The translations under genes were made by a program, and so were the position numbers. From contig OY970304.1 in assembly GCA_963716345.1 (NCBI GenBank), positions 2,075,483 to 2,139,482 on the forward strand: 64,000 nt of DNA, written 5' to 3'. The stretch is from an uncultured Solirubrobacterales bacterium (GTDB lineage: Bacteria; Actinomycetota; Thermoleophilia; Solirubrobacterales; 70-9). Positions within the stretch are counted from its first letter, which is position 1; every line of letters begins with the position of its first letter. Positions 1 to 48,238 of the stretch are shown here, one piece after another. The notes under the pieces were generated by a model. It did no database searches. It was given only the letters and a program-made list of their open reading frames with translations, and was not told the DNA's origin.

Positions 1-1842
1 AAAAGGCTTCCCCCTCCAACGCCCCCTACGTGTTCAACGCCGACGGCAGCCTCAACGAACGGCTGCCGACCAGCTTCGCGGGCGGAGAAGAAGCTGTGGA
101 AGCGCTAGGGTGCCCTTACCCGAGCATTAGGTACTCCGTCGCGTACTGCACCGGCGATGTCACCGCCTCGGCCGACCTAGGCCACTTTGTCTTCTCCTCT
201 AACAAAGCCTCCTTCGCCGAAGGAGAAGGCTTGGAAGAGGCGCCGGGATCGGCCTATGACAATGATCTCGCCACTAACACCGTTTCGCTGATCTCGCTCG
301 ACTCGGCCGGGCACCCGATCGCACAGGATCCGAGCTTCGCCAACGTTCTTCCTGAATGCGATGGTCTGTGCCAAGGAAGCGAAGGAAGAATCGAAGCTCC
401 GGGTGGAAAAGAAGAGTTCATCCGCTTTCCAGGAGTCTCTTCCGACGGTTCCCACATTCTGATGTCGACGGCGACTGCCCAGACCCATTTCTGCACGCGA
501 GGAAGCAGCACTCCCGAACCCTGCCAGCGCTTCACCGACACCTCGCTCCACCTCTACATGCGCGTCAACGACGCGATCTCCTACGAACCCTCACGCGGCG
601 AAGACGGCGTGAACCACGCGGTCAAGTTCCTCGGCATGACACCCGACGGCTCCAAAGTGTTCTTCACCTTCTGAAGAACAGCTAACCGCCGAAGACAAGG
701 ACACCAGCACCGACCTCTACATGTGGTCGGAGGCTACGGACTCGCTGACGCTGGTCTCAAAGGGAGACAACGCCGGCAACGCCGGCGAACCAGGACAGAG
801 CGACGGCTGCAATGCGAACGCATCTTGGACCACCAAGTGCGATATCCAGCCCAATGAAAACTACGAGTGGTCATTGCTGCCAGGCGGCGAGGGGGGAAAC
901 GGCATCGCCGACAGCGCGATCACTCCCAACGGCGACATCTACTTCTACTCGCCCGAGCAGCTCGACGGCGACAGGGGGGTCCTGGGCGGTCAGAATCTCT
1001 ACGACTATCGCGGTGGCAAGGCGCAGTTCGTGGCGACGCTTGAATCGGAAGAGAAATGCCGCCCGACGGTGCCGGCCCCAACCACCGGGGACTTGGGCCT
1101 CTGTTCCGAAGGCCCGATCGTGCGCTTTGAGGTCACCCCCGACGACAGCCGCGCCGCCTTCCTCACGACCACTCAGCTGACCTCCTATGACAACGCCGGC
1201 CACATCGAGATGTATTCCTTCACCCCTTCCAGCGGGGAAATCGTCTGCGACTCCTGCCGTCCTGACGGCAAAGCGCCGACCGACGACGTCAAAGCAAGCC
1301 AGGACGGTCGTTTCATCACCAACGACGGCCGGGTCTTCTTCTCCACCGCTGATCCCTTGGTGGCGCAGGACACCAACGAAGGCACTGACGTCTATGAGTA
1401 CGTTGACGGACGCCCGCAGCTGATCACGCCGGGGACGGGGACTGCCACGCCGCCCGGCGGTCCGATTAACTACTCCGGCTTCGCAGAGCAGGCTGGCCTA
1501 GTCGGGGTCAGCAACGACGGCACCGACGTCTACTTCGACACCTTCGACACCCTCACCAGCGAAGACCACAACGGCAACTTCCTCAAGTTCTATGACGCCC
1601 GCGTCAACGGCGGCTTTGCCCAACCGACGCCAGTGCCTCCTTGTAAGGCGGCCGAAGAATGCCACGGCGCCGGCGGCTCAGCTCCGGCCCTGCCGACTCA
1701 AGGCACCGCCGCCGCAATCAGCGGCGGCAACGCCAAGCAGAAGACGGCGGCAAAGCACAAGCGCAAGGCCAAGAAGCACAAGAAGGCGGCAAAGCGCCAC
1801 CGTGCACGAGCCGCCAATAGCAAGTGGAGGGCGGGCAAGTGA
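1..1842 (+). CDS. Beta-propeller repeat protein (PD40/TolB-like repeats), 5'-partial so no N-terminus or signal peptide is visible. The frame is broken once near 665-672. C-terminal C-x5-CHGA motif and Lys/His/Arg-rich tail (module A, copy 1).
   Basis: The frame of ORF 30..674 stays open back to nt 3, so the gene enters from upstream. ORFs 30..674 and 721..1842 join as ...DGSKVFFT(F)|SEEQLTAEDKDTSTDLYMWSEATDSLTLVSKG. This parallels ...DGSKVFFTTTDELLSEDEDESADLYAATISGESASLTLLSTG in 4697..9317. Repeated (S/T)xDGxxvxF propeller-like motifs. Tail is KHKRKAKKHKKAAKRHRARA. Confidence 0.6.
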
Positions 1843-4700
1843 GCGCCAAGGCAAGAGCTGTCGCTTTCACCGTGATGCTGTCGGTCATGGCACTGCTGCC
1901 GAGCACCGCCGCCCAAGCGATTCCGATCGAATCCTTCAGCGCCCTGCCCACCTCTACCCAGGCCGGAGGGCACCCCGACGTTGCCTTCTCTTTCACGATG
2001 GGAAATCGCCAGTTGGCCTCTCCTGACCCTTGCGCCTGCAGGGACGCCAGGACTATAGGCGTGCACCTGCCGACCGGGCTGATCGGCAACCCTCATGCGA
2101 CCCCGCAGTGCGACATCGCCAGCTTCTCCTCCGAACAGTGTCCGGTCGATTCGCAGATCGGGGTGGTCGAAATCAAAGTATCTGGCAAGCCAGGCGATCC
2201 AGAAGGTGGGGGCATTGCCGCCAATTCCCCAAGCTTTCTGGCGCCCGTGTACAACCTCATACCTCCTCCCGGAGATGTCGCCCTGCTTGGCTTCAAGGCC
2301 GTCTTCAACTTTCCCATCTTTACCGTGGTCGGCGCTCGCACCGACAGCGACTACGGTGTCGATGCGACGGTCGAAAACGTCATTCACTTTTTTCCGCTGC
2401 GTAGCGTCAAGCAGGTGCTCTGGGGAGTGCCGGCCGATCCCAGCCATGACGATCTGCGGTTCGGGCTGGGGCAGCAGGTACAAGCGGAAGGCAAGCTCTG
2501 CGACGACAACGGCAATCCAAGCACGAACGACCCCTCGACGATGAAACACCTCTGCCTCTTCGGCGGGAAAATCGGCTCGGTTGGCGCCGATGGCGTCGAA
2601 GGCCCCGGCCACGTCGTCTCCTCCAACAGCCCCCTAACCCCTTTCTGGCAGAACCCAACCACCTGCGGGGAATCCCTAGCCACGTCCCTGGACATCCTCG
2701 GCTACGACGACTCAGAAACCCACGCCGACAGCCTCTGGCCCCCCACAACAGACTGCGGCCAGTTGAGCTTCAACCCATCCCTCTTCGCCCGCCCCACAAC
2801 AGAATCAACCGATTCCCCCTCGGGCATAGACGTAGACCTAAAAGCCCCCTCCTTTGAGAGCCCAGACACCCCCTCTCCCTCAGAGATCAGGGGCACCACG
2901 GTCACCCTGCCCCCGGGCTTCTCGATCAACCCCAACGCCGCAGACGGCAAGACCTCCTGCCTGGACCAAGAAGCCAAGTTCGGCACCACAGAAGAAGCCC
3001 AGTGCCCTGAGTTCTCAAAGATCGGCACCCTTGAAGTCCACAGCCCGGTCCTCCCAGGCGTCCTCCCCGGAGCCATCTACATCGGCCACCCCCAAGAAGG
3101 CAAGCGCTACCGCCTCTTCCTCACCTTCGATGGCTTTGGCGTCCACGTAAAGCTCCCGGGAGAGGTCCACCCCGATCCCCAAACAGGCCAGGTCATAACC
3201 GAATTCAAGGACCTGCCCCAGTTCCCCTTCGAAGACTTCAACCTGCACTTCTTTGGCTCTGAACGAGGAGTCCTGGCGACCCCAAGCCAATGCGGCACCT
3301 ATCCGGTCTCCACCCTCTTCGAACCCTGGGACGGCTCCTTGCCAAACCAGACCTCGACCCAGTTCTTCAGCCTGACCTCCGGCCCAGGAGGGACTCCCTG
3401 CCCCAACGGCCCAAGGCCCTTCAACCCGGGCTTCGGAGCAGCCTCCTCCACCAACACCGCCGGCTCCCACACCGGCTTCTCCTTGAACCTGACAAGGCCA
3501 GACGGCGATCAGAACCTCAGCGCCCTTGACGTAACCACCCCGCCCGGCTTCTCGGCCACCCTCAAAGGCATCCCCTACTGCCCCGAGGCAGCGATCGCCG
3601 CCGCAGGGGCAGGCGTCTACTCAGGCGCCCAAGAGCAATCCCACCCCTCCTGTCCCCAGGCAAGCCTCGTAGGAGAAGCGATCGCCGGCTCAGGAGCAGG
3701 CACCCACCCCTTCTACGCCCCGGGAAGGGTCTACCTAGCCGGCCCCTACAAAGGCGCCCCACTGAGCCTGGTCGTGATCACCCCAGCCGTCTCAGGCCCC
3801 TATGACCTCGGAGACGTCGTAGTCAGGACAGCCCTCTACGTCAACCAGACCACGACCCAGGTCTCAGCAGTCTCAGACCCCTTGCCCCAGATCCTCGCCG
3901 GCATCCCATTGCGCCTGCGCTCGATCATGGTCAACCTCAACCGCCAAGGATTCGCCCTCAACCCAACCAACTGCGATCCCTTCTCGACCCAAGCCACGGT
4001 CTTCGGAAGTGAAGGAGCCACCAAGAGCCTTGCCTCCCACTTCCAGGTCGCCAACTGCGCCCGCTTGGACTTCGAACCGAAGCTCGAAACCTCAATCATC
4101 GGCCCGACCAAAAACGGCGCCACCCCTCGCTTCAAGGCGGTCCTGCGGATGCCCCAAGGCGGCGCCAACATCGAACACGTCGCGGTCACCCTGCCGCACT
4201 CCGAGTTCCTCAAACAGGCCCACATCAGAACCGTCTGCACCAGACCCCAGCTCGCCTCCCACAGCTGCCCAGCCGGATCTGTCTATGGCTTTGCCAGAGC
4301 CGAGACCCCGCTGCTAGACAAACCGCTGGAAGGCCCGGTCTACCTCGGCACCGGCTACGGGCACAAGCTGCCCGACCTGATCGCCGAACTAAACGGCCAG
4401 ATCCACGTGATCTTGGACGGCATCATCGACACCGGCAAGGGCGGCGGGATCAGAAACACCTTCGAAATCGTCCCCGATGCCCCCGTCTCCAAGTTCACCT
4501 TGGAAATGCAGGGAGGCAACAAAGGCCTGCTGGAAAACTCAAACGTCTGTGCCCAGCGCAACTACCTGACCGCCAAGTTCTTCGCACAGAACGGCAAGAC
4601 AAGCGTCTCGCACCCGCTGATGCAAGACGGCTGCGGGGCCAAAGGAAGGCACGAACGCCACAAGCGAGACGCCAAGCGCAACCGGGGGGTGGGTAAGTGA
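1839..4700 (+). CDS. Secreted ~950-aa protein of unknown function (module B, copy 1). The mature N-terminus carries the motif QAGGHPD.
   Basis: ORF 1824..4700. Preferred start is GTG 1839, which overlaps the upstream TGA (GTGA), with GGAGGG 7 nt upstream. SAKARAVAFTVMLSVMALLPSTAAQA looks like a Sec signal peptide. Collinear with 9314..12022 over its whole length. I recognise no known domain. Confidence 0.7.
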   Translation: MSAKARAVAFTVMLSVMALLPSTAAQAIPIESFSALPTSTQAGGHPDVAFSFTMGNRQLASPDPCACRDARTIGVHLPTGLIGNPHATPQCDIASFSSEQCPVDSQIGVVEIKVSGKPGDPEGGGIAANSPSFLAPVYNLIPPPGDVALLGFKAVFNFPIFTVVGARTDSDYGVDATVENVIHFFPLRSVKQVLWGVPADPSHDDLRFGLGQQVQAEGKLCDDNGNPSTNDPSTMKHLCLFGGKIGSVGADGVEGPGHVVSSNSPLTPFWQNPTTCGESLATSLDILGYDDSETHADSLWPPTTDCGQLSFNPSLFARPTTESTDSPSGIDVDLKAPSFESPDTPSPSEIRGTTVTLPPGFSINPNAADGKTSCLDQEAKFGTTEEAQCPEFSKIGTLEVHSPVLPGVLPGAIYIGHPQEGKRYRLFLTFDGFGVHVKLPGEVHPDPQTGQVITEFKDLPQFPFEDFNLHFFGSERGVLATPSQCGTYPVSTLFEPWDGSLPNQTSTQFFSLTSGPGGTPCPNGPRPFNPGFGAASSTNTAGSHTGFSLNLTRPDGDQNLSALDVTTPPGFSATLKGIPYCPEAAIAAAGAGVYSGAQEQSHPSCPQASLVGEAIAGSGAGTHPFYAPGRVYLAGPYKGAPLSLVVITPAVSGPYDLGDVVVRTALYVNQTTTQVSAVSDPLPQILAGIPLRLRSIMVNLNRQGFALNPTNCDPFSTQATVFGSEGATKSLASHFQVANCARLDFEPKLETSIIGPTKNGATPRFKAVLRMPQGGANIEHVAVTLPHSEFLKQAHIRTVCTRPQLASHSCPAGSVYGFARAETPLLDKPLEGPVYLGTGYGHKLPDLIAELNGQIHVILDGIIDTGKGGGIRNTFEIVPDAPVSKFTLEMQGGNKGLLENSNVCAQRNYLTAKFFAQNGKTSVSHPLMQDGCGAKGRHERHKRDAKRNRGVGK

Positions 4701-7700
4701 AGCGCCTAGTCCGACATCTTCCCGTCGTGGGGATCTTGATCGCCGCTTCCTTGGCGCTCAGCGCTTCCTCAGCCTCAGCCCTCTCCAAACACGTCTTTGC
4801 GACCTCCTTCGCAGGCTCAGGCACCAACGCCCTCTCCAACCCCTCTGACGTCGACATCGACCAGAGCAACGGCGACGTCTACGTCACCGATCCCGCTCAC
4901 TTCCGCATCGAGAAGTTCGATGCCTCGGGCAACTTCATCCTGATGTTCGGCAAGGGGGTCGATGCGACTACTGGCGGGGATGTGTGCACGGAGGCTTCGG
5001 GGGATGTCTGTCAGGCCGGGGCCAAGGGGAGTGGGCCGGGGGCTTTTGATGGGGAATTTGAAAGCGAAGGCGTTCAAGAACGCCTCTTCCTCGCCGTCGA
5101 CAACTCCGGCGGCCCATCCAACGGCGACATCTACGTCGGCGATCCGGCCACCAGCCTGGTCCAGAAGTTCGACTCCGCAGGCAACCTGATCACTAGCTGG
5201 GGCAAAGGCGGGCAGCTCGACGGGGCTGCTGAACATGAAAAGAAGTTCTTTCCCGACGGATTGCAGGGAATAGCCGTCAATCCAAGTGGGACCCTCTACG
5301 TGTTGGCTGGATACCTCAAGCTTGAGTTCTTCGAGTTTGAACAGGACGGCACGCCTATAAAGCAGCTCTTTGGGGAAGTTTTCCCTACTATCACCGGGCT
5401 CGCCGTTGATGGGGTGGGTGACCTCTATGTCCCAGGGGGATCCTCTGTCTTCAAGCTCGCGCCCAATCCCAAAGAAAAGATCGGCGCCGTAAACGCAGAA
5501 AGTAACGGGTTCGGAGTCTCCGGCTTGCGCATCGATCCGTCCTCAAACGACCTCTACCTCACCCACTTCCACGCCACCGAACACGACGGCGTGATCGAAC
5601 ACTTCTCTGCCGCCTGCAACCCGATTCCCAACCCCTGTGAAGCGGCCGATAGCTTCGGCGAAGGCAACCTGAACGAACCGCGCGGCGTCGCAATCAACGA
5701 CGCAACCGGCGCCGCCTATGTAGCCGACACTGGCAACGGCCGGGTGGCGGTCTTTACGGCAGAACCATTCCTTCCCGACGCCACGGCTGCGGCCGAAGCG
5801 CAGACTCCAAGCACGGAGGAACTCAAAGGAAAAGCCGACCCCGCAGGCGCCGGCCCGATCACCGCCTGCCACTTCCAATACGTCAGCGATGCCGCCTTTG
5901 ACAAAGAAGCCTTCGCCGATCTCAGCTCGGGCGGCAGCGTTCCCTGCGCCGAGGGCCAGTCTCTGGCCTCTGCCACAGAAGTCCATGGCGAACTGAGCGG
6001 CCTCACCTATGGCTCGGAATACCACTACCGCCTCTTGCTCGAAAACGCCAAAGGCACCAACGCCAGCTTTGATCAGAGCTTTGAGTCCTTGCCCCTGGCG
6101 CCGAGCCTTGAAGCCGAGTCGGCATCAAACGTCAACTCCGACACCGCCCGCATCCATGCCCTGATCAACCCCAACGGGGGAGACGCCACCTACCACACGA
6201 CCTACCACGTGGAATACGTCACTCAGGAAGGCTTTGAAGTGGGCGAATTCTCAGGAGCCCTGCAGAGCAAAAGCATCGACGCCGGCTCGGCCAGGACCCC
6301 CCAGGCGATCACCGCCCAGCTCTCGGGTCTTGCCGCCGACACCACCTACCACTACCGGGTGGTAGCCCAGAACGCCTCAGGCACGACCAAAGGCACTCCG
6401 CGCACCTTCACGACCTTCCCTACCGCGACCCCGACCATCGACCCCTGCTCCAACGCCCACGTGCGCCAGCAGACCGGCGCGGTTCGTCTCTTGGACTGTC
6501 GTGCCTATGAGCTGGTCTCCGCCGCCAACACCGGCGGCTATGACGTCGAGTCGAGCCTGATCGCAGGCCAAAGCCCCTTCCCGGGCTACCCAGAGGCAGA
6601 AGGCAAGGTCCTCTACGGCGTCCACAACGGCGGCATTCCCGGTACCGATCACCCGACCAACAAAGGCCTTGACCCCTATATCGCCACCAGGGGAGAAAAC
6701 GGCTGGGAAACCCAATACGAGGGAGTCCCCTCAAATGACCCCTACTCCGCCGCCCCCTTCTCCTCGCTGCCAACCGGGGCCAGCCAAGATCTGAAGACCC
6801 TTGCATTCGGAGCACCAGGTGGCTGCTCGCCTTGCTTTGAAGGCGGCTATACGGGCATCCCGCTGAGAAGGCCAAACGGAGAACTGGTCAACGGCATGGT
6901 CGGACCTGAAAACCCGGGCCCCACTGCCAAATCCCAAGGCCTGGTTGCAAAGCCCCTCTCAGCCGACGGCTCCCACTTCGTCTTTGGCTCGACCTCGAAG
7001 TTCACCGCAGACGCAAACGAAGGGCAGCTTGGGATCTATGACCGCAACCTGAACACCAACCAGACCTACCTCATCTCAAAGACCCCCGGCGAAGCGCAGA
7101 TGAGCGGAGCAGAAGTCGCAGAGCTAGACATCTCCAAAGACGGCTCCCACGTCCTGCTCGGCCAGCTTGTCTCCGAAGAAGAAGGAAACAAGCTCTACCA
7201 CCTTCTATCTGAACGTCGGGGACTCCTCAAAGACGATCGACTTGACCCCTGGGACCACCACTGGCGTTCTCTATGCCGGCATGTCTTCCGATGGCTCCAA
7301 GGTCTTCTTCACGACCACCGACGAACTGCTCTCCGAAGACGAAGATGAAAGCGCTGACCTCTACGCGGCAACCATCTCCGGCGAAAGCGCCAGCCTCACA
7401 TTGCTCTCTACCGGCTCGGAAGGAACCGGCAACACCGATGCCTGCAACCCAGCCGCCAACTCCGCTCACGAGCATTGGAACACGAAGGGCGAAGAAGCCA
7501 ACTGCGGCGTAGTCGCAGTTGGCGGTGGTGGGGGAGTGGCCTCCGAAGAGGGCTCTGTCTACTTCCTCTCGCCCGAGCGCCTTGACGGCTCCTCTAACGG
7601 GACCGAGGATGCGCCGAACCTCTACCTGGCGAGCCCCGGCTCGGCGCCTCGATACGTGACGACACTTGAATCGGTTGTTAACGGGCCCCAGCCACCGGCC

Positions 7701-9317
7701 CAACAGCATGCCTTCGATCACGAATTCGGCTCCTTTGGCGAAGCCACCGGGATCGCAGTCGATCACGCAGACGGGAGTGTCTATGTGCTTGACCTCGAAA
7801 CCAACACGGTCAAGAAGTTCGATGCCTCCGGCAACCTGGTGACCTCCTTCGGGGACAGCAGTCCCGCTCACGACGGCAAATTGGCAGGCCTCGAAACACC
7901 GGCAGGCTCCTTCGCTGGAATTGCGAGCATCGGTCCGACTCAGCTCGCGGTCGACAACGACCCCTCCAGCCCCTCCTTCGGTGACCTCTACGTCCCCGAC
8001 ATGGTCAACAGTGTCGTTGATCGCTTCAGCCCCGAAGGCCACTATGAAGGTCAGATCGGTACCACCTTCCCGATCGGCGTCGCCGTCAACCAAGCAAACG
8101 GCCACCTCTACGTCTCGAGCTTCTTCGGTCACGCCGAAGCCTTCGACGCCGAAGGCAACCCGGTTTCACCGACTGCCTTTCCAATCGCAGCCTTCACTCC
8201 CTCGGCGATCGCTGTCGATACGACCGGGACGATCTATGTCGCCAGCGCCGAAGGCACCGCCACCTATGACTCGAGTGGAGTCAAAACCGGCACGCTCGAC
8301 GCCAACCCCTCCACCGGGGTGAGCGTTGATCCCTCCACCAACGACATCTACGTCAACGAGGGCAACCAAGTCGTGCAGTTCAACTCCTCCGGCCAAAAGC
8401 TCACCGTCACCGGCGCGGACAGGCTCTCGCACTCCAGTGGGACCGCGATCGACCCAGGCGGCGAGCTCTACGCCACCAACGTCAGCGGCAAGAGCATCGC
8501 GGTGTTCCACCCCGCGGCGCTCACTCCCAGCCCGCTGATCGACAACCCGCTGGTGGTGGACTCGGTCAGTGAACCGGGGACACGCAGAACCGCCGACTTC
8601 CAGGTAACCCCCTCTGACAACTACGCCGCCTTCAGCTCCACCCTCGCCCTGGCAGGCGGCGAAGAAGAACCATCAGGCCACCCCCAGGTCTACCGCTACG
8701 CGTCTTCCTCGGAAGCGATCCAGTGCATCTCCTGCACCAAGACCGGCGCCCCCTCGGCAGGCGACGCCTCATTGGCCCCCAACGGCCTCAGCCTGCTCCA
8801 AGACGGAAGGGTCTTCTTCGACTCCACCGACCAGCTGGTCAACTCAGACACCGACGGCCGCCGCGACGCCTATGAGTTCTCCGAACCAGGCCAGGGCAAC
8901 TGCACCCCCGAAAGCCCCGCCTACGCCAAAGCAACAGGCACCTGCCTAGCGCTGATCTCGGCCGGCACCAGCCCCTTTGACTCGGGCCTGTTGACCGCTA
9001 CCTCAAACGGCAAAGACGCCTTCTTCTTTACCCGCGACAGCTTGGCCCCGCAAGACAAAAACGGCTCGACGATGAAGCTCTATGACGCTAGGGAAGGCGG
9101 TGGCTTTGCCTTCAGCCCCGATCCCAACACCTGCCAGGCCTCTGATGAGTGCCACGGGGCGGCAAGCCCCACACCGGGCCCTGTTCAGGTCGGTTCTGTC
9201 GCAGGAACGGCTGGCAACGAAAAGGCGTCGAAGAAGAAGGGCCACAAGAAGAAGCACCACAAACGCAAGAAGAGCCATCACAAGCGAGCCAACCACAAGC
9301 GCGGAGGTTCCAAGTGA
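4697..9317 (+). CDS. Secreted NHL-repeat / FN3-like / PD40-like beta-propeller protein (~1540 aa). The frame is broken once near 7198-7201. C-terminal C-x5-CHGA motif and polybasic tail (module A, copy 2).
   Basis: ORFs 4697..7348 and 7167..9317 join as ...EEEGNKLYH|FYLNVGDSSKTIDLTPG.... GTG 4697 overlaps the upstream TGA. Signal peptide MKRLVRHLPVVGILIAASLALSASSASA. NHL-like repeats include GDVYVTDPAHFRIEKFDASGNFI, GDIYVGDPATSLVQKFDSAGNLI and GSVYVLDLETNTVKKFDASGNLV. Two FN3-like segments end in YHYRL/YHYRV. The C-terminal third is collinear with 1..1842, including KLYDAREGGGFA and the tail KKKGHKKKHHKRKKSHHKRANHKR. Confidence 0.65.
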
Positions 9318-12022
9318 GGGCCCTGAAGACAAGCGCTGCCCTGGTGATCGCTTTGCTCGCAGTGCTCGGGCTCTCTAGCTCCGCCCTTGCCTCCGAGCCA
9401 ATCGAAGCCTTCACCACGACGATGTCAACCTCACAAGCCGGCGGGCACCCCGACATCACCACCAACTTCACCCTGGGTAACCCCGGAGCACCAGAGGCAG
9501 CCCAAAACGTGATCTTTGAGGCCCCCACCGGCCTCTTTGGCAACCCCACCGCGGCAACCGAATGCCAGGCCGATGATTTCGCCCTCGATCAGTGCCCCCC
9601 CAACTCCCAAGTCGGCCTGATCACCCTCCACGCCAACTATGAAGGCAACCCCAACTACCTCCTAGGCACAGCCCCGATCTTCACCGTCGTCCCCCAAAAC
9701 GGCGACACCGCCCGCTTCTCTTTCATCGTCCCGGTGCTAGGTATCCCGATCGCGATCCCAGTAGCGGTTAGGACCACAACCGACTACGGCTTGCGCTTCA
9801 CGGTCAAAGACATCTCCCAGCTCACCCCCCTGGCCTCTGCCTCGCTGACCTTCTGGGGCTTCCCCGCCGATGAAGAACACGACATCCAGCGCTTTGGGAA
9901 GGGCTCACCCGGGCACCCAGCAGGCTGCCCCAAAGAAGAAGGCACGGCCTGCATCACTGAAGGGACCGAAGCAAGCATCACCCCGACCCCCCTTACCGAC
10001 AACCCGACCACCTGCACCGGGGAAGCCCTCTCAGCTGCCTTGGAAGTGCAGACCTACCAAGACCCCGAACACCTCACCCAGGCCCACTCCACCTACCCGC
10101 CGATCACAGGTTGTGAGAAAGAGGTCTTCAAACCGGTCCTCCAAGCCTCCCCGACCACAAGCCAGACAGACTCGGCCTCGGGGCTAAACGTCGAGCTGCG
10201 CTCACCGCAGTTCCTAACCCGCGCAGCAGCTCCCTCCCAGATCAAATCGGCCCTGGTCACCCTGCCTGAAGGCTTCACGGTCAACCCCGACGCCGCCGAC
10301 GGCCAATCGGCCTGCACCGATGCCCAGGCCAACTTCAACTCAGAGGGCCCAGATAACTGCCCCGACTCAGCCAAGATCGGCACCTTTGCGATCGGCACCC
10401 CCGCCCTCCCAGAACCCCTAGAAGGAGCCGTCTACATCGGCCAACCCAAAGCAGGGGACCAATACCGCCTCTTTGAGTTCACCCACGGCTTTGGGATCAA
10501 CTCCAAGCTGGTTGGCTCGGTGATCCCAAACCCGATCACCGGCCGCCTCGCAGTCAGCTTCCCCAACCTGCCCCAGGCCCCCTTCGAAGACTTCCAGCTA
10601 CACCTCTTCTCCGGCGAACGCGGCCTCCTGGCAACGCCCAACTACTGCTCGGTCTATGCCGTCAGCGCTGAGTTTCACCCTTGGAACTCGACCCTCGCCG
10701 AACAGACCTCCGTTCAGCACTTCGGCCTTTCATCCGGCCCCGGCGGGGCTCCCTGCCCCGGGCAGGTGCGCCCCTTCTCACCCACCCTCTTTGCCGGCAC
10801 CTCAAACGCCTCAGCGGGTGAGCACTCCTCTTTCTCCTTGCGCCTCGACCGCGAAGACGGCAACCAGCTCTTGGGCAAGCTCGGCTTCACCATGCCCCCG
10901 GGCCTCTTGGCAAACCTGCACGGGGTTAGCTACTGCCCCGAGGCCCAGATCGCCGCCGCCGCGCAGCGCTCGGGCCTAAGCGAGCAGGCCACACCCAGCT
11001 GCCCCGCCGCCTCACAGATCGGCACCACCAACGTCGCCGCCGGCCCCGGCTCTCACCCCTTCCACGCCACCGGGCGGATCTACTTCGCCGGGCCCTTCTC
11101 CGGAGCGCCGCTCTCACTGGTCGCGATCACCCCGGCCCTGGCCGGCCCCTATGACTACGGCACCGTGGTCGTCAGAGTGGCGCTTCGCATCGACCCGCTC
11201 GATGCCCACGTCTTCGCCGACTCAGAAGTCGTCCCGGAGATCCTCGGCGGGGTGCCATTGCGCCTGCGCCAGATCCAGGTCAACATCGACCGCCCCAACT
11301 TCATGGTCAACCCGACCAACTGCGAACCGATGTCGATCGGCTCGCGCGGAATCGGCGACCAGGGCACCCTCGCCTCCTTTAGCTCCTACTTCAACGCGGT
11401 CAACTGCTCCACCTTGCCCTTCGCCCCGAAGATGAGCGTGACCCAGCTCGGCGGCCACAAGCAGGCCAAGCGCGCCGCTGATCCCGCCCTGCGCTTTGAC
11501 CTGCGCACAAAGCCCGGCGAAGCCAACGTCCGCTCGCTGGCGCTGACCCTGCCCAGGGCCTTTGGGATCGACCAGCGCCACCTCGGCAACATCTGCTCCA
11601 AGTCCCAACTACAGCGCGAACACTGCGCCGGGCGCCAGCCGATCGGCAACGTGATCACCGAAACCCCGCTCTTGGAAGCCCCGCTTAGCGGCCCCGCCTA
11701 CGCGGTCTCTGGCTATGGCAAGTTGCCCCACCTCGCCTTCATCCTCTCCGGGCAGGTAACGGTGATCCCCGAAGCGATGTCCTCGACGGTCAAGGGCGGG
11801 CGCCTAAGGACAGTGGTGCCAGTCATCCCCGATGCCCCGATCGGCCACTTCGCCCTCACCCTGCTAGGCGGCAAACAAGGCTACATCCGCAACTTCGCCA
11901 ACCTCTGCGCCGCCCCGACCACCACCACGGTCGAATACAGCGGCCAAAACGGCAAGACCCACACCGAACAGGTGAGGACCAAGGCCGCCTGCGCCGCCAA
12001 GGCCAAGCAGCACAAAAAGTAA
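9314..12022 (+). CDS. Secreted ~900-aa protein of unknown function (module B, copy 2), paralog of 1839..4700.
   Basis: ORF 9149..12022. Preferred start is GTG 9314, which overlaps the upstream TGA, with GGAGG 6 nt upstream. Signal peptide VRALKTSAALVIALLAVLGLSSSALA. Motifs shared with copy 1: QAGGHPD, LP.GF..NP.AADG..C.D, LPQ.PFEDF.LH.F..ERG.LATP, GPYD.G.VVVR, PLRLR.I.VN..R..F..NPTNC.P. Confidence 0.7.
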   Translation: MRALKTSAALVIALLAVLGLSSSALASEPIEAFTTTMSTSQAGGHPDITTNFTLGNPGAPEAAQNVIFEAPTGLFGNPTAATECQADDFALDQCPPNSQVGLITLHANYEGNPNYLLGTAPIFTVVPQNGDTARFSFIVPVLGIPIAIPVAVRTTTDYGLRFTVKDISQLTPLASASLTFWGFPADEEHDIQRFGKGSPGHPAGCPKEEGTACITEGTEASITPTPLTDNPTTCTGEALSAALEVQTYQDPEHLTQAHSTYPPITGCEKEVFKPVLQASPTTSQTDSASGLNVELRSPQFLTRAAAPSQIKSALVTLPEGFTVNPDAADGQSACTDAQANFNSEGPDNCPDSAKIGTFAIGTPALPEPLEGAVYIGQPKAGDQYRLFEFTHGFGINSKLVGSVIPNPITGRLAVSFPNLPQAPFEDFQLHLFSGERGLLATPNYCSVYAVSAEFHPWNSTLAEQTSVQHFGLSSGPGGAPCPGQVRPFSPTLFAGTSNASAGEHSSFSLRLDREDGNQLLGKLGFTMPPGLLANLHGVSYCPEAQIAAAAQRSGLSEQATPSCPAASQIGTTNVAAGPGSHPFHATGRIYFAGPFSGAPLSLVAITPALAGPYDYGTVVVRVALRIDPLDAHVFADSEVVPEILGGVPLRLRQIQVNIDRPNFMVNPTNCEPMSIGSRGIGDQGTLASFSSYFNAVNCSTLPFAPKMSVTQLGGHKQAKRAADPALRFDLRTKPGEANVRSLALTLPRAFGIDQRHLGNICSKSQLQREHCAGRQPIGNVITETPLLEAPLSGPAYAVSGYGKLPHLAFILSGQVTVIPEAMSSTVKGGRLRTVVPVIPDAPIGHFALTLLGGKQGYIRNFANLCAAPTTTTVEYSGQNGKTHTEQVRTKAACAAKAKQHKK

Positions 12023-12037
12023 GAGAGGAACTCCTAG

Positions 12038-12655
12038 ATGTTGAAGCTAAAGCGGCCCTCACCGGCCCTGGTCATCGCTGTTATCGCCCTGATCTGTGCC
12101 CTTAGCGGCACCGCCTATGCCGCCCTGGGCAAGAACTCAGTTGGCTCACGCCAGCTCAAGGCAAAGGCAGTGACCACCGGCAAGATCGCCAATAACGCGG
12201 TCAACGCCGCCAAGGTCGCCGATGGCTCGCTGACCGGCCAAGACATCAACATCGGCGCCCTCGGCACCGTCCCCTCTGCCACCAACGCCGCCCATGCCCA
12301 AAACGCCGACACCGTCGGTGGGCACGGTGCCTCTTGTCCTGCCGCCACCACCTTGATCCGCGGCCTTTGCTTTGACTCCACTTCAAACGGCCCGGCATCC
12401 TCCCTGCAAGCCGCCACCGAAGCCTGCGCGGCAAAGGGCGGCTACCTGCCGACCCCGATGGAGCTCTACTCCACCCGCGGGGTGCTTAACCTCGGCTCTG
12501 GGATCGGCTCAGATCGCCAATACACCGATGAGATCTACTCCAACACCTCCGGCGGTAACTACCGCACGATCGTGATCGACGGCACCGGGGCGCTAACCGA
12601 ACAGGCCCCCTCAAGCGCCGCCCACTACTTCTGCGTCTATGAGCTGGTGCGCTAG
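12038..12655 (+). CDS. Secreted 205-aa protein. The N-terminal part resembles a tail fibre (KxVTTGKIANNAVNAAKVADGSLTG). The C-terminal part is Cys-containing and lectin-like (DUF1566-like).
   Basis: ATG with GAGAGGA upstream. Signal peptide/TM PALVIAVIALICALSGTAYA. The C-terminal segment ...ACAAKGGYLPTPMELYS... resembles the DUF1566 / C-type-lectin-like signature. This assignment is from memory and is not verified. Confidence 0.6.
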   Translation: MLKLKRPSPALVIAVIALICALSGTAYAALGKNSVGSRQLKAKAVTTGKIANNAVNAAKVADGSLTGQDINIGALGTVPSATNAAHAQNADTVGGHGASCPAATTLIRGLCFDSTSNGPASSLQAATEACAAKGGYLPTPMELYSTRGVLNLGSGIGSDRQYTDEIYSNTSGGNYRTIVIDGTGALTEQAPSSAAHYFCVYELVR

Positions 12656-13447
12656 GTGAGAGCCGCGCCCAAGCGCGCCGGCGCCGTCTTGCTCGTTGCC
12701 TTGGCCCTGCTTTGCCTGGTAGCGGGAGCCTCCGCCGAGCAGGCCAAGAAGGGCAACCTGGAGGTCTCCTTTAACGGCGGCATCTCCCCCCAGCACCTGC
12801 CCCGCACCGAAGCGGTGCCGGTCACGGTGCAGATGGGCGGCAAGATCAAGACCACCGATAAATCGATCCCGCCAAAGCTGGAGAGGATCATCTTGGCGAT
12901 CAACTCCGCCGGGCAGATCGAAACCAAGGGCCTACCCACCTGCTCGCTAAAGAAGCTGCAGTCGATCTCCTCTCAGGGAGCCCGCAAGGCCTGCGGGGAT
13001 GCCCTGATCGGCCACGGCAACGTCACCTCCAGGGTAAGCCTGCCCGGCCAAGGAGCCTTTGCCTCAAACGGCACCCTGCAAGCCTTCAACGGCACCTACA
13101 AAGGCCACTCCGCTGTCCTTGCCCAGGTCTCCTCGGGAGCTCCCCTACCGCTGACCTACGTGATCGTCTTTGAAGTCAAAAAGACCAAGGGCACCTTTGG
13201 CACCACCTTGGTCGGCACCCTGCCCCCGATCGCCTCTGAATACGGCTACATCTCTGCCTTTGATCTCTCCCTAGCCCGCAACTACCCCTACAAGGGCAAG
13301 AGCAGAAGCTATGCCTCTGCTTCTTGCCCAGCGCCGAAGGGATTCAGCGCCGCCTCCTTTACCTTCGCCCAGGCGAGCTATGAGTTCGCCGATGGGAGGG
13401 TGCTTTCTTCGAAGCTGGTGCGGCAGTGTCGGGTTCGGGGGAAGTGA
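12656..13447 (+). CDS. Secreted 263-aa protein that appears related to the C-terminal domain of the module B proteins.
   Basis: GTG directly after the upstream TAG. Signal peptide AVLLVALALLCLVAGASA. It shows the same order of elements as the last ~230 aa of B1/B2: a Cys...Cys pair (PTCSLKKLQSISSQGARKAC), then a strand ISAFDLSL (compare VSKFTLEM and GHFALTLL), then a terminal Cys...Cys pair and a basic end (RQCRVRGK). Confidence 0.6.
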   Translation: MRAAPKRAGAVLLVALALLCLVAGASAEQAKKGNLEVSFNGGISPQHLPRTEAVPVTVQMGGKIKTTDKSIPPKLERIILAINSAGQIETKGLPTCSLKKLQSISSQGARKACGDALIGHGNVTSRVSLPGQGAFASNGTLQAFNGTYKGHSAVLAQVSSGAPLPLTYVIVFEVKKTKGTFGTTLVGTLPPIASEYGYISAFDLSLARNYPYKGKSRSYASASCPAPKGFSAASFTFAQASYEFADGRVLSSKLVRQCRVRGK

Positions 13448-13540
13448 GGGCTTCATCCTAAAAAACCACGTGCGTATCTTGACAAACGCGAACTGACATG
13501 TTTGTATTTCAACTTGTATTCGCTTGAGAACCGAGTCGGT

Positions 13541-14248
13541 ATGCACGCTGAACAAGAGGCCAAATCCACCCGTCGCTCACGCGCCTCGCGTCGACGCCCG
13601 GACATTCCTCCGCCCAGTGTCGAGAAGATTCGGCCCCGCTCCGGACTCTCGCGCGACGAGGTGGTCGCCAACCAGCGCCGGCGGATCTTCGCCGGGTTTG
13701 CCGTGGCGCTCGCCTACCACGGCTACGAGGACACAAAGGTCACCGACATCGTCGAACTATCCGGTGTCTCGCGCGCCACTTTCTACGAGCGCTTCGAGAG
13801 CAAGGAGCTTTGCTTTGCCGCCGCCTATGAAGATGGGGTGGAGAGGCTTGCGGCGGCCGTGGGGGAGGCGGTGGGCGGCGAGCGTGATTGGGCCAATCAG
13901 CTCTCCGCCGGGCTCATGGTCGGGCTTGAATTCATCGCGGCCGATCCGTCCCTGGCCCACCTGCTCTTCGTCGAGTCACTGGCCGCGGCGCGCCCCGCTC
14001 GCCTTGAGCACGAGCGTTCGCTGGAGCGCCTGGCGGAGGTTCTGCGGCCACCGGTCGACGGCGCTGAGGTCTCTGCGGAGACTGCTCGAATGCTCGCGGG
14101 GGGTCTCGCCTCCCACGTTTCGGGCTGCATCCTCGCCGGTGAAGCCGAGCGCCTGCCCGAGCTGCACGACCCACTGCTCCAGTATCTCCTCGCCCCGTCG
14201 CTGGCGGCCTTGCGCACCACGGATGAGCGACGAGCCGCCGCGCTTTGA
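13541..14248 (+). CDS. TetR/AcrR-family transcriptional regulator.
   Basis: ORF 13502..14248. ATG 13541 is preferred. HTH region GYEDTKVTDIVELSGVSRATFYERFESKELCF. An A/T-rich region with TTGACA (13479-13484) lies upstream. Confidence 0.75.
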   Translation: MHAEQEAKSTRRSRASRRRPDIPPPSVEKIRPRSGLSRDEVVANQRRRIFAGFAVALAYHGYEDTKVTDIVELSGVSRATFYERFESKELCFAAAYEDGVERLAAAVGEAVGGERDWANQLSAGLMVGLEFIAADPSLAHLLFVESLAAARPARLEHERSLERLAEVLRPPVDGAEVSAETARMLAGGLASHVSGCILAGEAERLPELHDPLLQYLLAPSLAALRTTDERRAAAL

Positions 14249-14906
14249 TCCGGCCGGCTTCGCCGAGCTGCCCGACAGGCTCGCGCTTGGCCAATTGCCC
14301 CCTGGCCGTCACGGTTTGCCACGCTCCTTCGTGGTTCGCAACCAGCGCCTGCGCATCGTTGCCGGCATGCTGCGAGTACTGCCGCGCCACGGCTATGCCG
14401 AGACGACGATCGGTCAGATCATCACGGAGGCTCGCGTCTCCCGGGCCGCCTTTTACCGTCAGTTCGCCGGCAAGGAGGAGTGCTTCCTGGAGGCGTATGA
14501 GCTCGGCGGCGGCTGGCTCTGCGATGGGGTGGAGGCCGCTGTCGCCAGCAAGCCCTGGCCGGCTCGCGTTCGGGTCGGCGTCGGCGAGGCCCTGCGGATA
14601 CTTGCCGCCAACCCGCCGCTGGCCCACCTGATCGCAATCGAGGCGCTGCAGGCCGGCTCCGCCGCCCGCCGACTGCAGCAGGCTAGTCTCGGCCGACTCG
14701 CCGAGATCCTCAGCCTCGGCCGGCCTGAGCGCCCCGAGCTACCCGCCGATCTCGAGTCGTTGCTGCTCGGCGGCGCTCTCTCCGTCGTCTCCCGCCATGT
14801 CGAACAGGGCCGGGTCGAGCAGTTGCCCGAGATCGAAGCCGCCTTGGTCGAGTGCCTGCTGATTCCCTACCTTGGACCGGGAGAAAGCAAGCGGATAGCG
14901 GCTTGA
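14223..14906 (+). CDS. TetR/AcrR-family transcriptional regulator (second copy, overlapping the first by 26 nt).
   Basis: This is the C-terminal third of ORF 13524..14906, starting at ATG 14223 (MSDEPPRF...). HTH region GYAETTIGQIITEARVSRAAFYRQFAGKEECF. The upstream two thirds of that ORF is an off-frame artefact over the first TetR gene. Confidence 0.7.
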   Translation: MSDEPPRFDPAGFAELPDRLALGQLPPGRHGLPRSFVVRNQRLRIVAGMLRVLPRHGYAETTIGQIITEARVSRAAFYRQFAGKEECFLEAYELGGGWLCDGVEAAVASKPWPARVRVGVGEALRILAANPPLAHLIAIEALQAGSAARRLQQASLGRLAEILSLGRPERPELPADLESLLLGGALSVVSRHVEQGRVEQLPEIEAALVECLLIPYLGPGESKRIAA

Positions 14907-15272: not shown

Positions 15273-16025
15273 CTACTCTGCTCTTACCCCCTCAGGCCGC
15301 TTTGCGGTGGCCTGAGATGCGGAGCCGCCTTGTGCGGCTCTCGCTATTTCTGGGGCCTTGGTCCACCCCGTTGGGCACCTGATTGGCCCTTCCTCGTCGC
15401 TTAGGTCCAAGGGAAGCTGGGCTTTGCGGAGTCGCCGGGGCTGTATCTCCTGGTAGAAGGACTTCGCAGGGATCTTGTGCGGGGAGAGGGCGTAGCTCCT
15501 CACCGAATGAGGGTTAATGATGCCGACCCCAGCGTCATAGACCTGACGCACGATCTCAACGGGTGTCTTCAGGTCGCTGTCGTTGGAGATCACGACAGCG
15601 AGGTCGTAGCGAGCACGCGAGCCGTCAACGAGCAGATGGCTCGCGAGGTTCACGTCCGATCCCTTCTCCTCATGGACCCAAACCTCGCGCAAGCCGATAT
15701 CGCCCTTCTTCCCGCGCTTCGGGGGATTCGTCAAAAGGCGAGTGGCTTTTCGGGTCAGGAACCGGCCATAGATGATCTCGACCTTCGGCAAAGTCTTGAG
15801 CGCCCGTAGATATTCCCGCTGCTGCTTTTGCTGCCCGGGATTGTCTGGTCGGTCTTTGACTTTCGCCGTGAAGTATTTGATCGATACGAGTTCCGCGCCT
15901 GGCTTCACATACTGGCGACAGAGGGCTTCGATATCGAGCCAGCGGTAGGGCTTTCCACGGAGGGAGCCGTAGTAGAGATTGAAGCCATCGATGTAAAAAC
16001 TCATGCGCTTCTTTGGGTACATCAT
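15273..16025 (-). CDS. NYN-domain (LabA/DUF88-like, PIN-related) putative ribonuclease.
   Basis: MSFYIDGFNLYYG... and ...EKGSDVNLASHLLVDGSRARYDLAVVISNDSDLKTPVEIV match the NYN/LabA signature (N-terminal Asp, EKGxD, SxDsD). It starts 17 nt after the transposase stop on the same strand. Confidence 0.75.
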   Translation of the reverse strand: MMYPKKRMSFYIDGFNLYYGSLRGKPYRWLDIEALCRQYVKPGAELVSIKYFTAKVKDRPDNPGQQKQQREYLRALKTLPKVEIIYGRFLTRKATRLLTNPPKRGKKGDIGLREVWVHEEKGSDVNLASHLLVDGSRARYDLAVVISNDSDLKTPVEIVRQVYDAGVGIINPHSVRSYALSPHKIPAKSFYQEIQPRRLRKAQLPLDLSDEEGPIRCPTGWTKAPEIARAAQGGSASQATAKRPEGVRAE

Positions 16026-16042: not shown

Positions 16043-16885
16043 CTAGTCCAGCAGCGCCGCAATCTCTTCAAGCGACCAGACGTGATCCGCCACCCCAGCA
16101 GCCATTGCCGGAGTCCGGGGGTAGCGCTCCTTGAGCGCTGTATGCGAGCGAGCGAAGTTGTAGTGCATGAAGTGCAAGGAAACGGCGTGGGAGAGGTTCT
16201 CGACCTTGCGGCTGAATCCATTGGTCAGCCGAGTAAAGCGCCGCATCCCCATCCGCATCGTCAAGTTCTGCCGCTCCACGTAGCTGGTTGAGATCCGGTC
16301 CGGGTCGGGGTCGCCCTTCCGGGTGAGGCGCTTCGTCCCGGTGCAGACGGCCGGGCTGTATTTGCCCGCCTCCCCGCCGGAGGCATAGACCTTGTGGATC
16401 TGCGCCCAATCGACCTGATGGCGGAAGGACGGCCCCACGGTGCCTTCGTACATCCGGTGGCCGTCAGTCGATAGCTGGATACGGTTGCCCATCCGGCTCG
16501 CCAGATCGGTGAGGAAGACTTCGGCATCGTCTGAGGTCCGCTCCCCGACCAGCCAGGAGGGGACCAGCTTCGTATCGGCGCAGATCGCCGTGAAAGTCCA
16601 AACGTCGCCGTAGCCCGGAGTCCCTTTGAACTCCTCCGGCACGTTCTTGTTCTTCGCGTAGCAGAAGGCCCAAATCTCATCGGCCTCAACGACCTTGCAG
16701 GGAAGGTCCACGAACACGCCGTCCTGGTACTCGGCGCAGGCTTCCCCGAGATCGACCAGCAGTTTGGTGATCGTGTTCTTCGCTGCCCCGGTCATCCGCA
16801 CCGTGGCGCGGATCGAGTTGCCCTCGACCAGGCAGCCGACGATCTGGGCGCGCTTCTCGGTGGAGAGCCTGTTCATACTGACCAT
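16043..16885 (-). CDS. IS1-family DDE transposase.
   Basis: Part of ORF 16043..17002, trimmed to ATG 16885 (MVSMNRLSTEKRAQIVGCLVEGNSIR: N-terminal HTH). The C-terminal signature SYVERQNLTMRMGMRRFTRLTNGFSRKVENLSHAVSLHFMHYNFARSH is typical of IS1-type transposases. Confidence 0.85.
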   Translation of the reverse strand: MVSMNRLSTEKRAQIVGCLVEGNSIRATVRMTGAAKNTITKLLVDLGEACAEYQDGVFVDLPCKVVEADEIWAFCYAKNKNVPEEFKGTPGYGDVWTFTAICADTKLVPSWLVGERTSDDAEVFLTDLASRMGNRIQLSTDGHRMYEGTVGPSFRHQVDWAQIHKVYASGGEAGKYSPAVCTGTKRLTRKGDPDPDRISTSYVERQNLTMRMGMRRFTRLTNGFSRKVENLSHAVSLHFMHYNFARSHTALKERYPRTPAMAAGVADHVWSLEEIAALLD

Positions 16886-16992
16886 TATGCGTAAGCGTTC
16901 GGACAGAAAAAAGCAGGGGAATACACCCAACGTGCGTAGCTTGACGCATTGGCTAACGTAAATACGTGGGTAGTCGATATAGGCTGCACGAG

Positions 16993-17077
16993 CGGAGGGC
17001 ACGGGGGTCGAACCCGTAAACGCTAGGCACGTTGCCCGATTGAAAATCGGGTTGGTTCACCAAATACCAGGCCCTCC
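16993..17077 (-). tRNA. Atypical class-II (long variable arm) tRNA-like gene. Predicted anticodon UUC, discriminator G, no encoded CCA.
   Basis: Manual fold of the minus strand:
- acceptor GGAGGGC/GCCCTCC
- D arm GGT-AUUUGGUGA-ACC
- anticodon arm CCCGA-UUUUCAA-UCGGG
- 17-nt variable arm with an AACG/CGUU stem
- T arm ACGGG-UUCGACC-CCCGU
Position 8 is C rather than U. Not run through tRNAscan-SE. Confidence 0.55.
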
Positions 17078-48203: not shown

Positions 48204-48238
48204 GCTGGCTGTTCAACGCCAGCCCTGGAGGATTCAAC

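Follow-up and report, generated by a model that had tools for sequence, protein, structure and literature searches.

A multi-copy operon of the Solirubrobacterales predicted to encode a secreted, disulfide-rich surface complex of beta-propellers and immunoglobulin-like chains

Introduction

The MSCRAMM (microbial surface components recognizing adhesive matrix molecules) adhesins and sortase pilins, represented by SdrD, ClfA, Bbp, RrgB, BcpA and Sgo0707, are secreted surface chains of immunoglobulin (Ig)-like sandwiches, and in MSCRAMM-type adhesins a variable, ligand-binding N-terminal part is carried by a constant repeat stalk. Here we describe a six-gene cassette, A1-B1-A2-B2-C-D, from an uncultured bacterium of the Solirubrobacterales, whose B and D products have these proteins among their best matches in Foldseek searches and seem to follow a similar plan. 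The cassette fills positions 1-13447 of the stretch of DNA that we analyzed, which is 64,000 nucleotides (nt) long and is referred to throughout as the window (GenBank assembly GCA_963716345.1, contig OY970304.1, positions 2,075,483 to 2,139,482 of the forward strand). The cassette differs from MSCRAMM adhesins and pilins in that its products share no sequence homology with them and are without an LPxTG/sortase signal or Pfam adhesin domains; B has 16 invariant cysteines, A and B end in a polybasic tail, and a synthesis coupled to that of beta-propeller partners is predicted.

A head placed on a stalk is likewise the logic of the integrin alpha chain, which is the top Foldseek match of the B proteins (E = 1.2e-7) and whose calf domains are the highest-probability matches of D; some relatives of the cassette fuse an NHL propeller to a B chain. 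The cassette propeller is, however, of the six-bladed NHL type, whereas that of integrin is a seven-bladed FG-GAP propeller, and head and stalk of the cassette are usually separate polypeptides without a transmembrane segment. At a sequence identity of 5-9%, the resemblance of the predicted structures to integrin almost certainly reflects convergence or a generic property of Ig folds. An extracellular six-bladed NHL propeller of actinobacterial origin is found in the PknD sensor of M. tuberculosis (PDB 1rwi), to which A2 has a sequence match (E = 2.6e-5). This propeller is regarded as a binding module, for which we know of no ligand. The PknD propeller is joined to a kinase via a transmembrane helix, whereas the A proteins are predicted to be secreted proteins of 1,300-1,540 amino acids (aa) in which the propeller is combined with FN3-like domains, additional blades and a basic tail. 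A mosaic organization in several copies with conserved and divergent segments is shared with the sapA homologs of Campylobacter fetus. Compared with the sapA loci, the repeated unit of the cassette comprises an entire operon (four to six genes), there is no homology, and the cassette is not known to possess invertible promoters or silent copies.

Solirubrobacterales are abundant soil bacteria that, to our knowledge, have almost never been cultured, and little is known about their interaction with their surroundings. A previous inspection of the window, hereafter the sequence-only reading, had put forward the hypothesis that the cassette encodes an envelope, adhesion or surface-layer-type apparatus. 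An envelope or adhesion apparatus remains the best reading because the components are predicted to be secreted, beta-rich and free of enzyme-type domains, and give models that resemble adhesins, pilins and integrin legs, from which we infer the function. With a probability of roughly one half, we regard the cassette as one copy of a Solirubrobacterales operon that builds a secreted, disulfide-rich surface complex, a sortase-independent head-and-stalk binding apparatus with variable heads.

Results

All six genes of the cassette lie collinearly on the plus strand, at the coordinates previously assigned to them (Table 1). Each of the three A/B junctions is a GTGA stop/start overlap (at 1839, 4697 and 9314) with a GGAGG-like Shine-Dalgarno motif positioned 6-9 nt upstream, which agrees with the sequence-only reading. 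Judged from their layout, the A and B genes are translationally coupled. A gap of 15 nt separates B2 from C, and C and D abut, with the TAG of the former directly followed by the GTG of the latter. The Sec-type signal peptides that had been claimed for B1, A2, B2, C and D can be retraced by eye: each protein starts with a Lys/Arg-rich n-region, followed by a hydrophobic core and an AxA site (AQA in B1, ASA in A2, ALA in B2, AYA in C and ASA in D). In predicted structure models, these N-termini form isolated helices of low confidence.

The arrangement of the A and B genes is strictly maintained in related genomes. Our scan, in which each species was represented by one genome, returned 488 relatives of B, and the best 80 of these were used for the analysis of loci. 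All 80 originate from Solirubrobacterales, Thermoleophilia or unclassified actinobacterial metagenome-assembled genomes (MAGs), often with many on one contig; ten of the loci stem from one MAG, and seven of these are located on a single 412-kb contig. The adjacency of A and B, which the sequence-only reading had marked as a point to be checked, is conserved, as the order A-B1-A-B2 was found in 80 of 80 loci, and the upstream B was of the B1 type and the downstream B of the B2 type in 78 of 78. Hence, the term tandem duplication is misleading, since the A1/B1 and A2/B2 pairs represent distinct subfamilies of old age, always arranged in this order, and not the outcome of a recent event. We conclude that the duplication is ancient and that A1, B1, A2 and B2 constitute one fixed unit. 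Overlaps between the stop of A and the start of B are common, and the stops of the A genes have the form NTGA (N = A, G or T) in 66 of 81 cases. Where the flank downstream of B2 suffices, C is present in 26 and D in 24 of 69 loci, often together with a second D-like gene. All genes are intact in locus L001 (A, 1452 aa; B, 956 aa; A, 1280 aa; B, 908 aa; C, 206 aa; D, 264 aa), which also possesses the 4-nt overlaps. Conservation across genomes is highest for D and C (63-72% in the more distant loci), decreases over B2 and B1, and is lowest for A (37-50%). All homologs are annotated as 'hypothetical' or are named only for the NHL domain, and the literature that we searched contained nothing on this family.

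Near-contiguous arrays of cassettes with a spacing of 15-36 kb were seen in CAVOWL010000006.1 (L029, L032, L041, L044, L076 and others) and in CAVUWL010000018.1 (L016-L039). Several units of these arrays pass straight from B2 to the next A without C or D.

The source genome itself contains six to seven cassettes, with copies counted within clusters of at least 90% identity. B1 is represented by six copies, which are 77-84% identical over module 1 (aa 28-290) and 97-99% identical over aa 291-953; the seven copies of B2, compared by eye from their sequences, are about 97-99% identical throughout. All seven copies of D fall into one cluster at or above 90% identity (98% between the D of the window and P0271), at least three near-identical copies of C differ at a handful of positions, and four intact A2 paralogs exist beside the copy in the window, at 79-84% identity. 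Differences between the A2 paralogs are mostly found in the two NHL propellers (aa 190-310 and 1070-1290), and the hot spots of variation in B1 module 1 are aa 120-149 and 210-263. Over aa 1-95, the B1 protein of the window is 99-100% identical to P0393; over aa 96-165, the identity to P0393 is 70% and that to P0396 is 93%. Module 1 of B1 is thus a mosaic, a pattern that indicates recombination between the copies. With near-identical parts standing next to divergent, mosaic ones, each copy therefore combines a constant chassis with variable parts, and the copies seem to exchange segments. A similar gradient was seen in five further genomes with several copies, where modules 2-4 are less divergent than module 1 (only marginally so for B1 in one genome) and B2 is less divergent than B1.

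B1 and B2 are paralogs over their full length (42% identity over 932 columns), as had been recognized before. The statement that they contain no known domain also stood, as neither Pfam, NCBIfam, PHROGs and PADLOC nor the PDB sequences, the latter also searched with a profile, returned a match. B relatives amount to 7,536 representative clusters at E <= 1e-3. Each B protein comprises four modules that are about 215 aa long and homologous to one another (hhalign probabilities of 98% for M2-M4 and 95% for M2-M3), with a QAGGHPD motif near the start of module 1 to which modules 2-4 are, by eye, loosely similar at the matching place, and the B proteins contain the 16 invariant cysteines. The AlphaFold model of B1 is all-beta (predicted local distance difference test, pLDDT, 86.4; predicted template modeling score, pTM, 0.73), and its modules are predicted to be Ig-like beta-sandwiches. 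Foldseek retrieved integrin alpha legs, SdrD, ClfA, Bbp and AgI/II with this model (E = 1e-7 to 1e-4, at a low whole-chain template modeling (TM) score), as well as transglutaminase barrels and macroglobulin domains; the matches to SdrD, ClfA and AgI/II have probabilities of 0.99-1.0 at 8-10% identity and low TM-scores. In the viral library BFVD, B matched a DUF11 protein and generic Ig-rich phage proteins. Giant B relatives in the representative library (P0121-P0132; 3,400-7,161 aa) carry 8-16 copies of the module region with almost no Pfam coverage, and beyond the B region, giant and extended relatives gave only FN3, Ig or weak adaptin-C2 matches. A-like segments and a full B occur in one chain in 16 of 150 distant representatives, and an NHL segment precedes B in the fusions P0127, P0140 and P0165, among others, the last of which also has FN3. 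Such chains tie the propeller and the stalk to one assembly.

A2 begins with a signal peptide and an NHL propeller, followed by an FN3-like domain and about seven PD40-like blades, among which a second NHL propeller is inserted, and it ends in a polybasic tail (Table 1). The sequence-only reading had described the A proteins as propellers of the NHL/PD40 type, and the NHL part of this description is corroborated by Pfam NHL repeat matches in A2 (E = 5.7e-16 and 5e-15; PF01436, 58.1 bits for the N-terminal part and 55.1 bits for the C-terminal ORF (open reading frame), cut-off 20), which are accompanied by FN3-like domains. Among PDB sequences, the propeller matches the NHL domains of TRIM2, TRIM3, TRIM71 and PknD. 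The PD40 part received no profile support: the search for a PD40/TolB propeller (PF07676) in the C-terminal half of A was negative, so that this candidate was rejected, and the C-terminal region had no match among PDB sequences, either as a single sequence or as a 25-sequence profile. It contains a recurring [ST]xDG..VFF-like motif every 50-70 aa, which amounts to five to seven blade-like motifs; apart from this motif, only the labels PD40 or 'Tol' of two distant homologs speak for the assignment. Both pieces of A1 (A1n and A1c) remained without a Pfam match at E <= 0.1. In some sources, A homologs are named 'sugar lactone lactonase YvrE'; no enzyme-type domain passed the curated threshold in any component of the cassette.

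No match was found for C and D in Pfam, NCBIfam and PADLOC, for D in PHROGs, and for C among PDB sequences. The view that B, C and D belong to no recognizable family is thus borne out across the libraries searched, with a partial PHROG match of C, in which aa 30-88 (59 aa) align with the tail-fibre family phrog_892 (E = 2.3e-5). We rejected C as a phage tail fibre, as the match is partial only, phage genes are absent nearby, and B is absent from IMG/VR. D is modeled by AlphaFold as two sandwiches (pLDDT 89.9, pTM 0.83), and the Foldseek matches of highest probability were integrin calf domains (TMq 0.36-0.39), Sgo0707 and the RrgB and BcpA pilins. D was also rejected as a free-standing B module (hhalign probability <= 4%; nothing in BLASTP); the only link between B and D is at the level of the fold, as both resemble integrin calf domains and pilins. 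Within the last 20 residues, at least six are Lys, Arg or His in 80 of 82 B proteins and in 165 of 175 A proteins; the medians are 2 for C and 3 for D, which are hence without a polybasic tail. The tails of A and B are purely basic and without a hydrophobic segment. A regular-expression search for LPxTG-like motifs found none near any C-terminus, its sole match being LPSTA inside the signal peptide of B1, and sortases are absent among the Pfam-annotated neighbors of L001, L084 and the window at 13.5-27 kb.

Table 1. Features of the cassette and its surroundings (positions in the window).
Feature	Position	Strand	Description
A1, 5' part	1..674	+	Frame 3, premature TGA 672-674; N-terminus beyond the window edge
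A1 frame-break site	665..672	+	8-mer CACCTTCT, one base extra compared with orthologs
A1, 3' part	673..1842	+	Frame 1; five PD40-like blade motifs, conserved C..EC.G pair, polybasic tail 1735-1839
B1	1839..4700	+	953 aa; signal peptide, four homologous modules, polybasic helix tail 4632-4697
B1 modules	M1 1920-2768, M2 2769-3419, M3 3420-4070, M4 4071-4631	+	M1 is the part varying between paralogs
A2	4697..9317	+	1539 aa after removal of one base; as deposited, ORFs 4697..7348 and 7167..9317
A2 domains	~4790-5776, ~6128-6445, ~7722-8486, 9222-9314	+	NHL propeller 1, FN3-like domain, second NHL propeller, polybasic tail
A2 frame-break site	7199..7206	+	Same 8-mer CACCTTCT
B2	9314..12022	+	902 aa; four-module plan as in B1; constant paralog
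C	12038..12655	+	205 aa; N-terminal signal or anchor, short repeat segment aa 30-88, Cys-containing C-terminal globular domain
D	12656..13447	+	263 aa; predicted to be secreted and to form two Ig-like beta-sandwiches
Two tandem TetR-family genes	13502..14906 (~13541-14248, ~14250-14906)	+	Directly after D
NYN-domain gene	15273-16025	-	
IS1-like transposase fragment	16043-17002	-	
DUF5122 gene	21259-22764	+	Putative extracellular beta-propeller with RTX calcium-binding repeats
IMPDH/GuaB-family gene	48206-49824	+	Scattered across three frames

A1 and A2 had been taken as continuous genes. This proved incorrect for the deposited sequence, in which each of them carries a one-base insertion at the 8-mer CACCTTCT and switches frame in the +1 direction (Table 1). 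In A1, the switch from frame 3 to frame 1 takes place near 669; a tblastn search with the intact ortholog LA1 places aa 848-1040 at 6..668 in frame 3 and aa 1032-1426 at 643..1746 in frame 1, and the ortholog in L004 reads TTCTTCACTTCCGAGGAA (FFTSEE) at this site. Deletion of one base at the A2 site yields GNKLYHLYLNVGDS, with a register identical to that of the intact paralogs P0416, P0417, P0418 and P0420. These four proteins (1540-1543 aa), which are encoded in the same genome, align residue by residue with the repaired A2. In L001 and L004, the orthologs are uninterrupted at both break sites. In the public record, the A fragments are annotated individually, as proteins of 883 and 373 aa.

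Most likely, the breaks are single-base assembly errors; otherwise, this copy of the cassette would be decaying. We consider an assembly error probable because a gene of the IMPDH/GuaB family in the window is also split over three frames: the frame that contains 48206 encodes Pfam IMPDH positions 1-64, another encodes positions 113-329 from 48688 onward, and the 44 aa between them are read in the third frame (48555-48686). One of its breaks resembles an extra G in GTCGGCGGTC. The 8-mer CACCTTCT occurs six times in the window (1.35 expected). None of the four copies other than those at the A-gene breaks is at a break, and one of them precedes the second IMPDH break by about 25 nt. The presence of the 8-mer at both A-gene breaks may reflect basecalling errors specific to this context or a hot spot of mutation. 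A biological origin, that is, programmed +1 frameshifting or slippage at CACCUUCU or the true inactivation of a decaying pseudo-cassette, is conceivable and distinctly less probable. It would account for the identical 8-mer at both sites, the common +1 direction and the presence of the breaks in the deposited record, and CUU-CUA at the A2 site would resemble the CUU-type +1 shift sites of prfB and Ty1. CUA is expected to be rare as a codon at this guanine-plus-cytosine (GC) content. However, the motif is read in differing codon registers (ACC-TTC-TGA in A1 and CAC-CTT-CTA in A2), which argues against a common ribosomal mechanism, and four paralogs from the same genome as well as orthologs are intact across the homologous sites. 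Together with the frame-broken IMPDH gene, these points led us to reject programmed +1 frameshifting at CACCUUCU. Frame-broken B genes in related long-read MAG loci (12 of 129, vs. 1 of 32 in short-read assemblies) speak further against a biological origin.

On its coding strand, the cassette is strongly enriched in C and A (GC skew of -0.10 to -0.24 over positions 1-13447), and its third codon positions contain 50-59% C vs. 20-30% G. This preference for C is stronger than in most other ORFs sampled from the window and could result from an expression-linked codon bias or from a different origin of the cassette. A scan of the cassette for terminators and promoters found sites no more frequently than in shuffled sequence.

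Two TetR-family genes in tandem follow directly after D, with TetR_N matches of E = 5.8e-9 and 4.1e-11 (36 and 42.9 bits, cut-off 24), and TetR-like matches, mostly as tandem pairs, are also present near 42 of the 80 cassette loci. The TTG start of the first gene at 13502 is probably wrong, the ATG at 13541 being more likely. In the AT-rich spacer between D and the TetR genes (13479-13507), a consensus TTGACA at 13479 is found 17 nt upstream of a TTGTAT-like hexamer, which suggests that the TetR genes are transcribed from a promoter of their own; no inverted repeat was found in this spacer.

A step in GC content divides the window, with about 60-67% in 1-30000 and about 66-76% in 32000-64000. 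The low-GC part contains the cassette, the IS1-like transposase fragment and the NYN-domain gene, and may represent a genomic island. The DUF5122 gene (Table 1) has a counterpart that adjoins the cassette in L001. In L084, PIN-domain and PhdYeFM antitoxin genes (toxin-antitoxin pairs; 1256-2403) are situated directly 5' of the cassette.

Discussion

The building blocks of the cassette, Ig-like chains and NHL propellers, are familiar, and its type is probably that of a bacterial surface adhesin or receptor apparatus. In the libraries and the literature searched, we found no description of the module family, of the fixed unit of four genes, of the polybasic tails or of the multi-copy organization with constant and variable parts. 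In line with the sequence-only reading, B lacks a confident match to a characterized family, and the linkage between A and B is kept in related genomes. We envisage that B1 and B2 form a stalk or scaffold, on which the propellers of the A proteins and module 1 of B1 would serve as ligand-binding heads. Because a sortase signal is absent, we propose that the polybasic tails would attach this complex non-covalently to anionic polymers of the wall or to the membrane, and C and D might act as conserved adaptor, base or accessory parts. With several cassettes, one genome would then have a range of binding specificities at its disposal, which recombination between the copies would diversify. The TetR pair could function as a switch, through which the cassettes would be turned on by TetR ligands.

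Several points weigh against a binding apparatus of this kind. The signal peptides were called by eye only, and the anchoring of A and B through their tails is purely what we infer. Fold matches of B and D reflect a generic multi-Ig likeness, with a whole-chain TM-score of about 0.12 for B and no Foldseek match at E <= 1e-3 for D. The A proteins have weak matches to SGL (E = 3.9e-5, under the Pfam cut-off) and arylesterase, and such propellers can be enzymes. About 60% of the cassettes are without a detectable C or D, so that these components are perhaps not obligatory. In the copy studied here, both A genes are frame-broken as deposited.

If A and B were envelope-covering subunits of a surface-layer (S-layer)-like or sheath lattice, the cassettes would serve surface variation, for example phage escape, as the sap genes of Campylobacter fetus do, rather than the binding of ligands by adhesins or receptors. 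Multiple copies with constant and variable, mosaic segments would suit such a lattice, for which non-covalent attachment via the tails is plausible as well. The Foldseek match to the S-layer protein EA1 that also points in this direction is, however, very weak (probability 0.12), an SLH or other S-layer/cell-wall-binding module was not found in Pfam and NCBIfam, and four or more different large subunits are unusual for an S-layer. As the fusions of propeller and stalk favor a projecting head and stalk, we regard a lattice as unlikely. We are equally doubtful about a system for the extracellular capture or degradation of substrates, in which the propellers would be lactonases, lyases or binders of soil compounds, B the scaffold, and each cassette would respond to a ligand of its own via the TetR pair, with an expansion like that of polysaccharide-utilization loci. 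The TetR-like genes near about half of the loci, the expansion of paired genes to many copies per genome, and the SGL and arylesterase matches and YvrE names of the A proteins are compatible with it. Yet no enzyme family passes its curated threshold, the propellers are the most variable parts, whereas conservation would be expected of a catalytic core located there, and transporter or catabolic genes do not recur in the flanks examined.

Far less probable than either of these is a phage or mobile-element module (tail fibre or tailocin) or an anti-phage defence system. The 59-aa match of C to PHROG 892, the lower GC content of the first 30 kb with an IS1-like fragment nearby, and the matches of B to multi-Ig phage proteins in BFVD could be taken as signs of a phage origin. 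These BFVD proteins are generic Ig-like chains, however; no relative of B was found among 2.9 million IMG/VR contigs, and capsid, tail and baseplate genes are absent from the flanks examined. With respect to defence, none of seven protein pieces had a PADLOC match.

Returning to the surface complex with variable heads, a broader and more tentative proposal, which we hold to be possible rather than probable, is that the cassettes represent a hitherto unrecognized system of surface receptors, independent of sortase and widespread among Solirubrobacterales. A constant chassis (B2, C, D, modules 2-4 of B1 and the polybasic anchors) would carry heads that are hypervariable, formed by the NHL propellers and B1 module 1. 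With six to more than ten copies of the operon in a genome, gene conversion between them would generate a combinatorial binding repertoire. The B module would constitute a new extracellular domain family of more than 7,500 clusters without a Pfam model.

An operon of about 16 kb that is present in about seven copies takes up about 4% of the DNA of a 2.9-Mb genome, and a related MAG contains at least ten copies. Near-identical parts beside mosaic, divergent ones are what would be expected under pressure to recognize or evade many partners, be they particles, polymers, cells or phages. If the B family were defined, the databases would gain a new extracellular domain, and thousands of hypothetical proteins would receive a name. 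At the same time, the cassette provides a testable model for how attachment and surface variation may be accomplished in a Gram-positive lineage without the usual sortase signals on these proteins.

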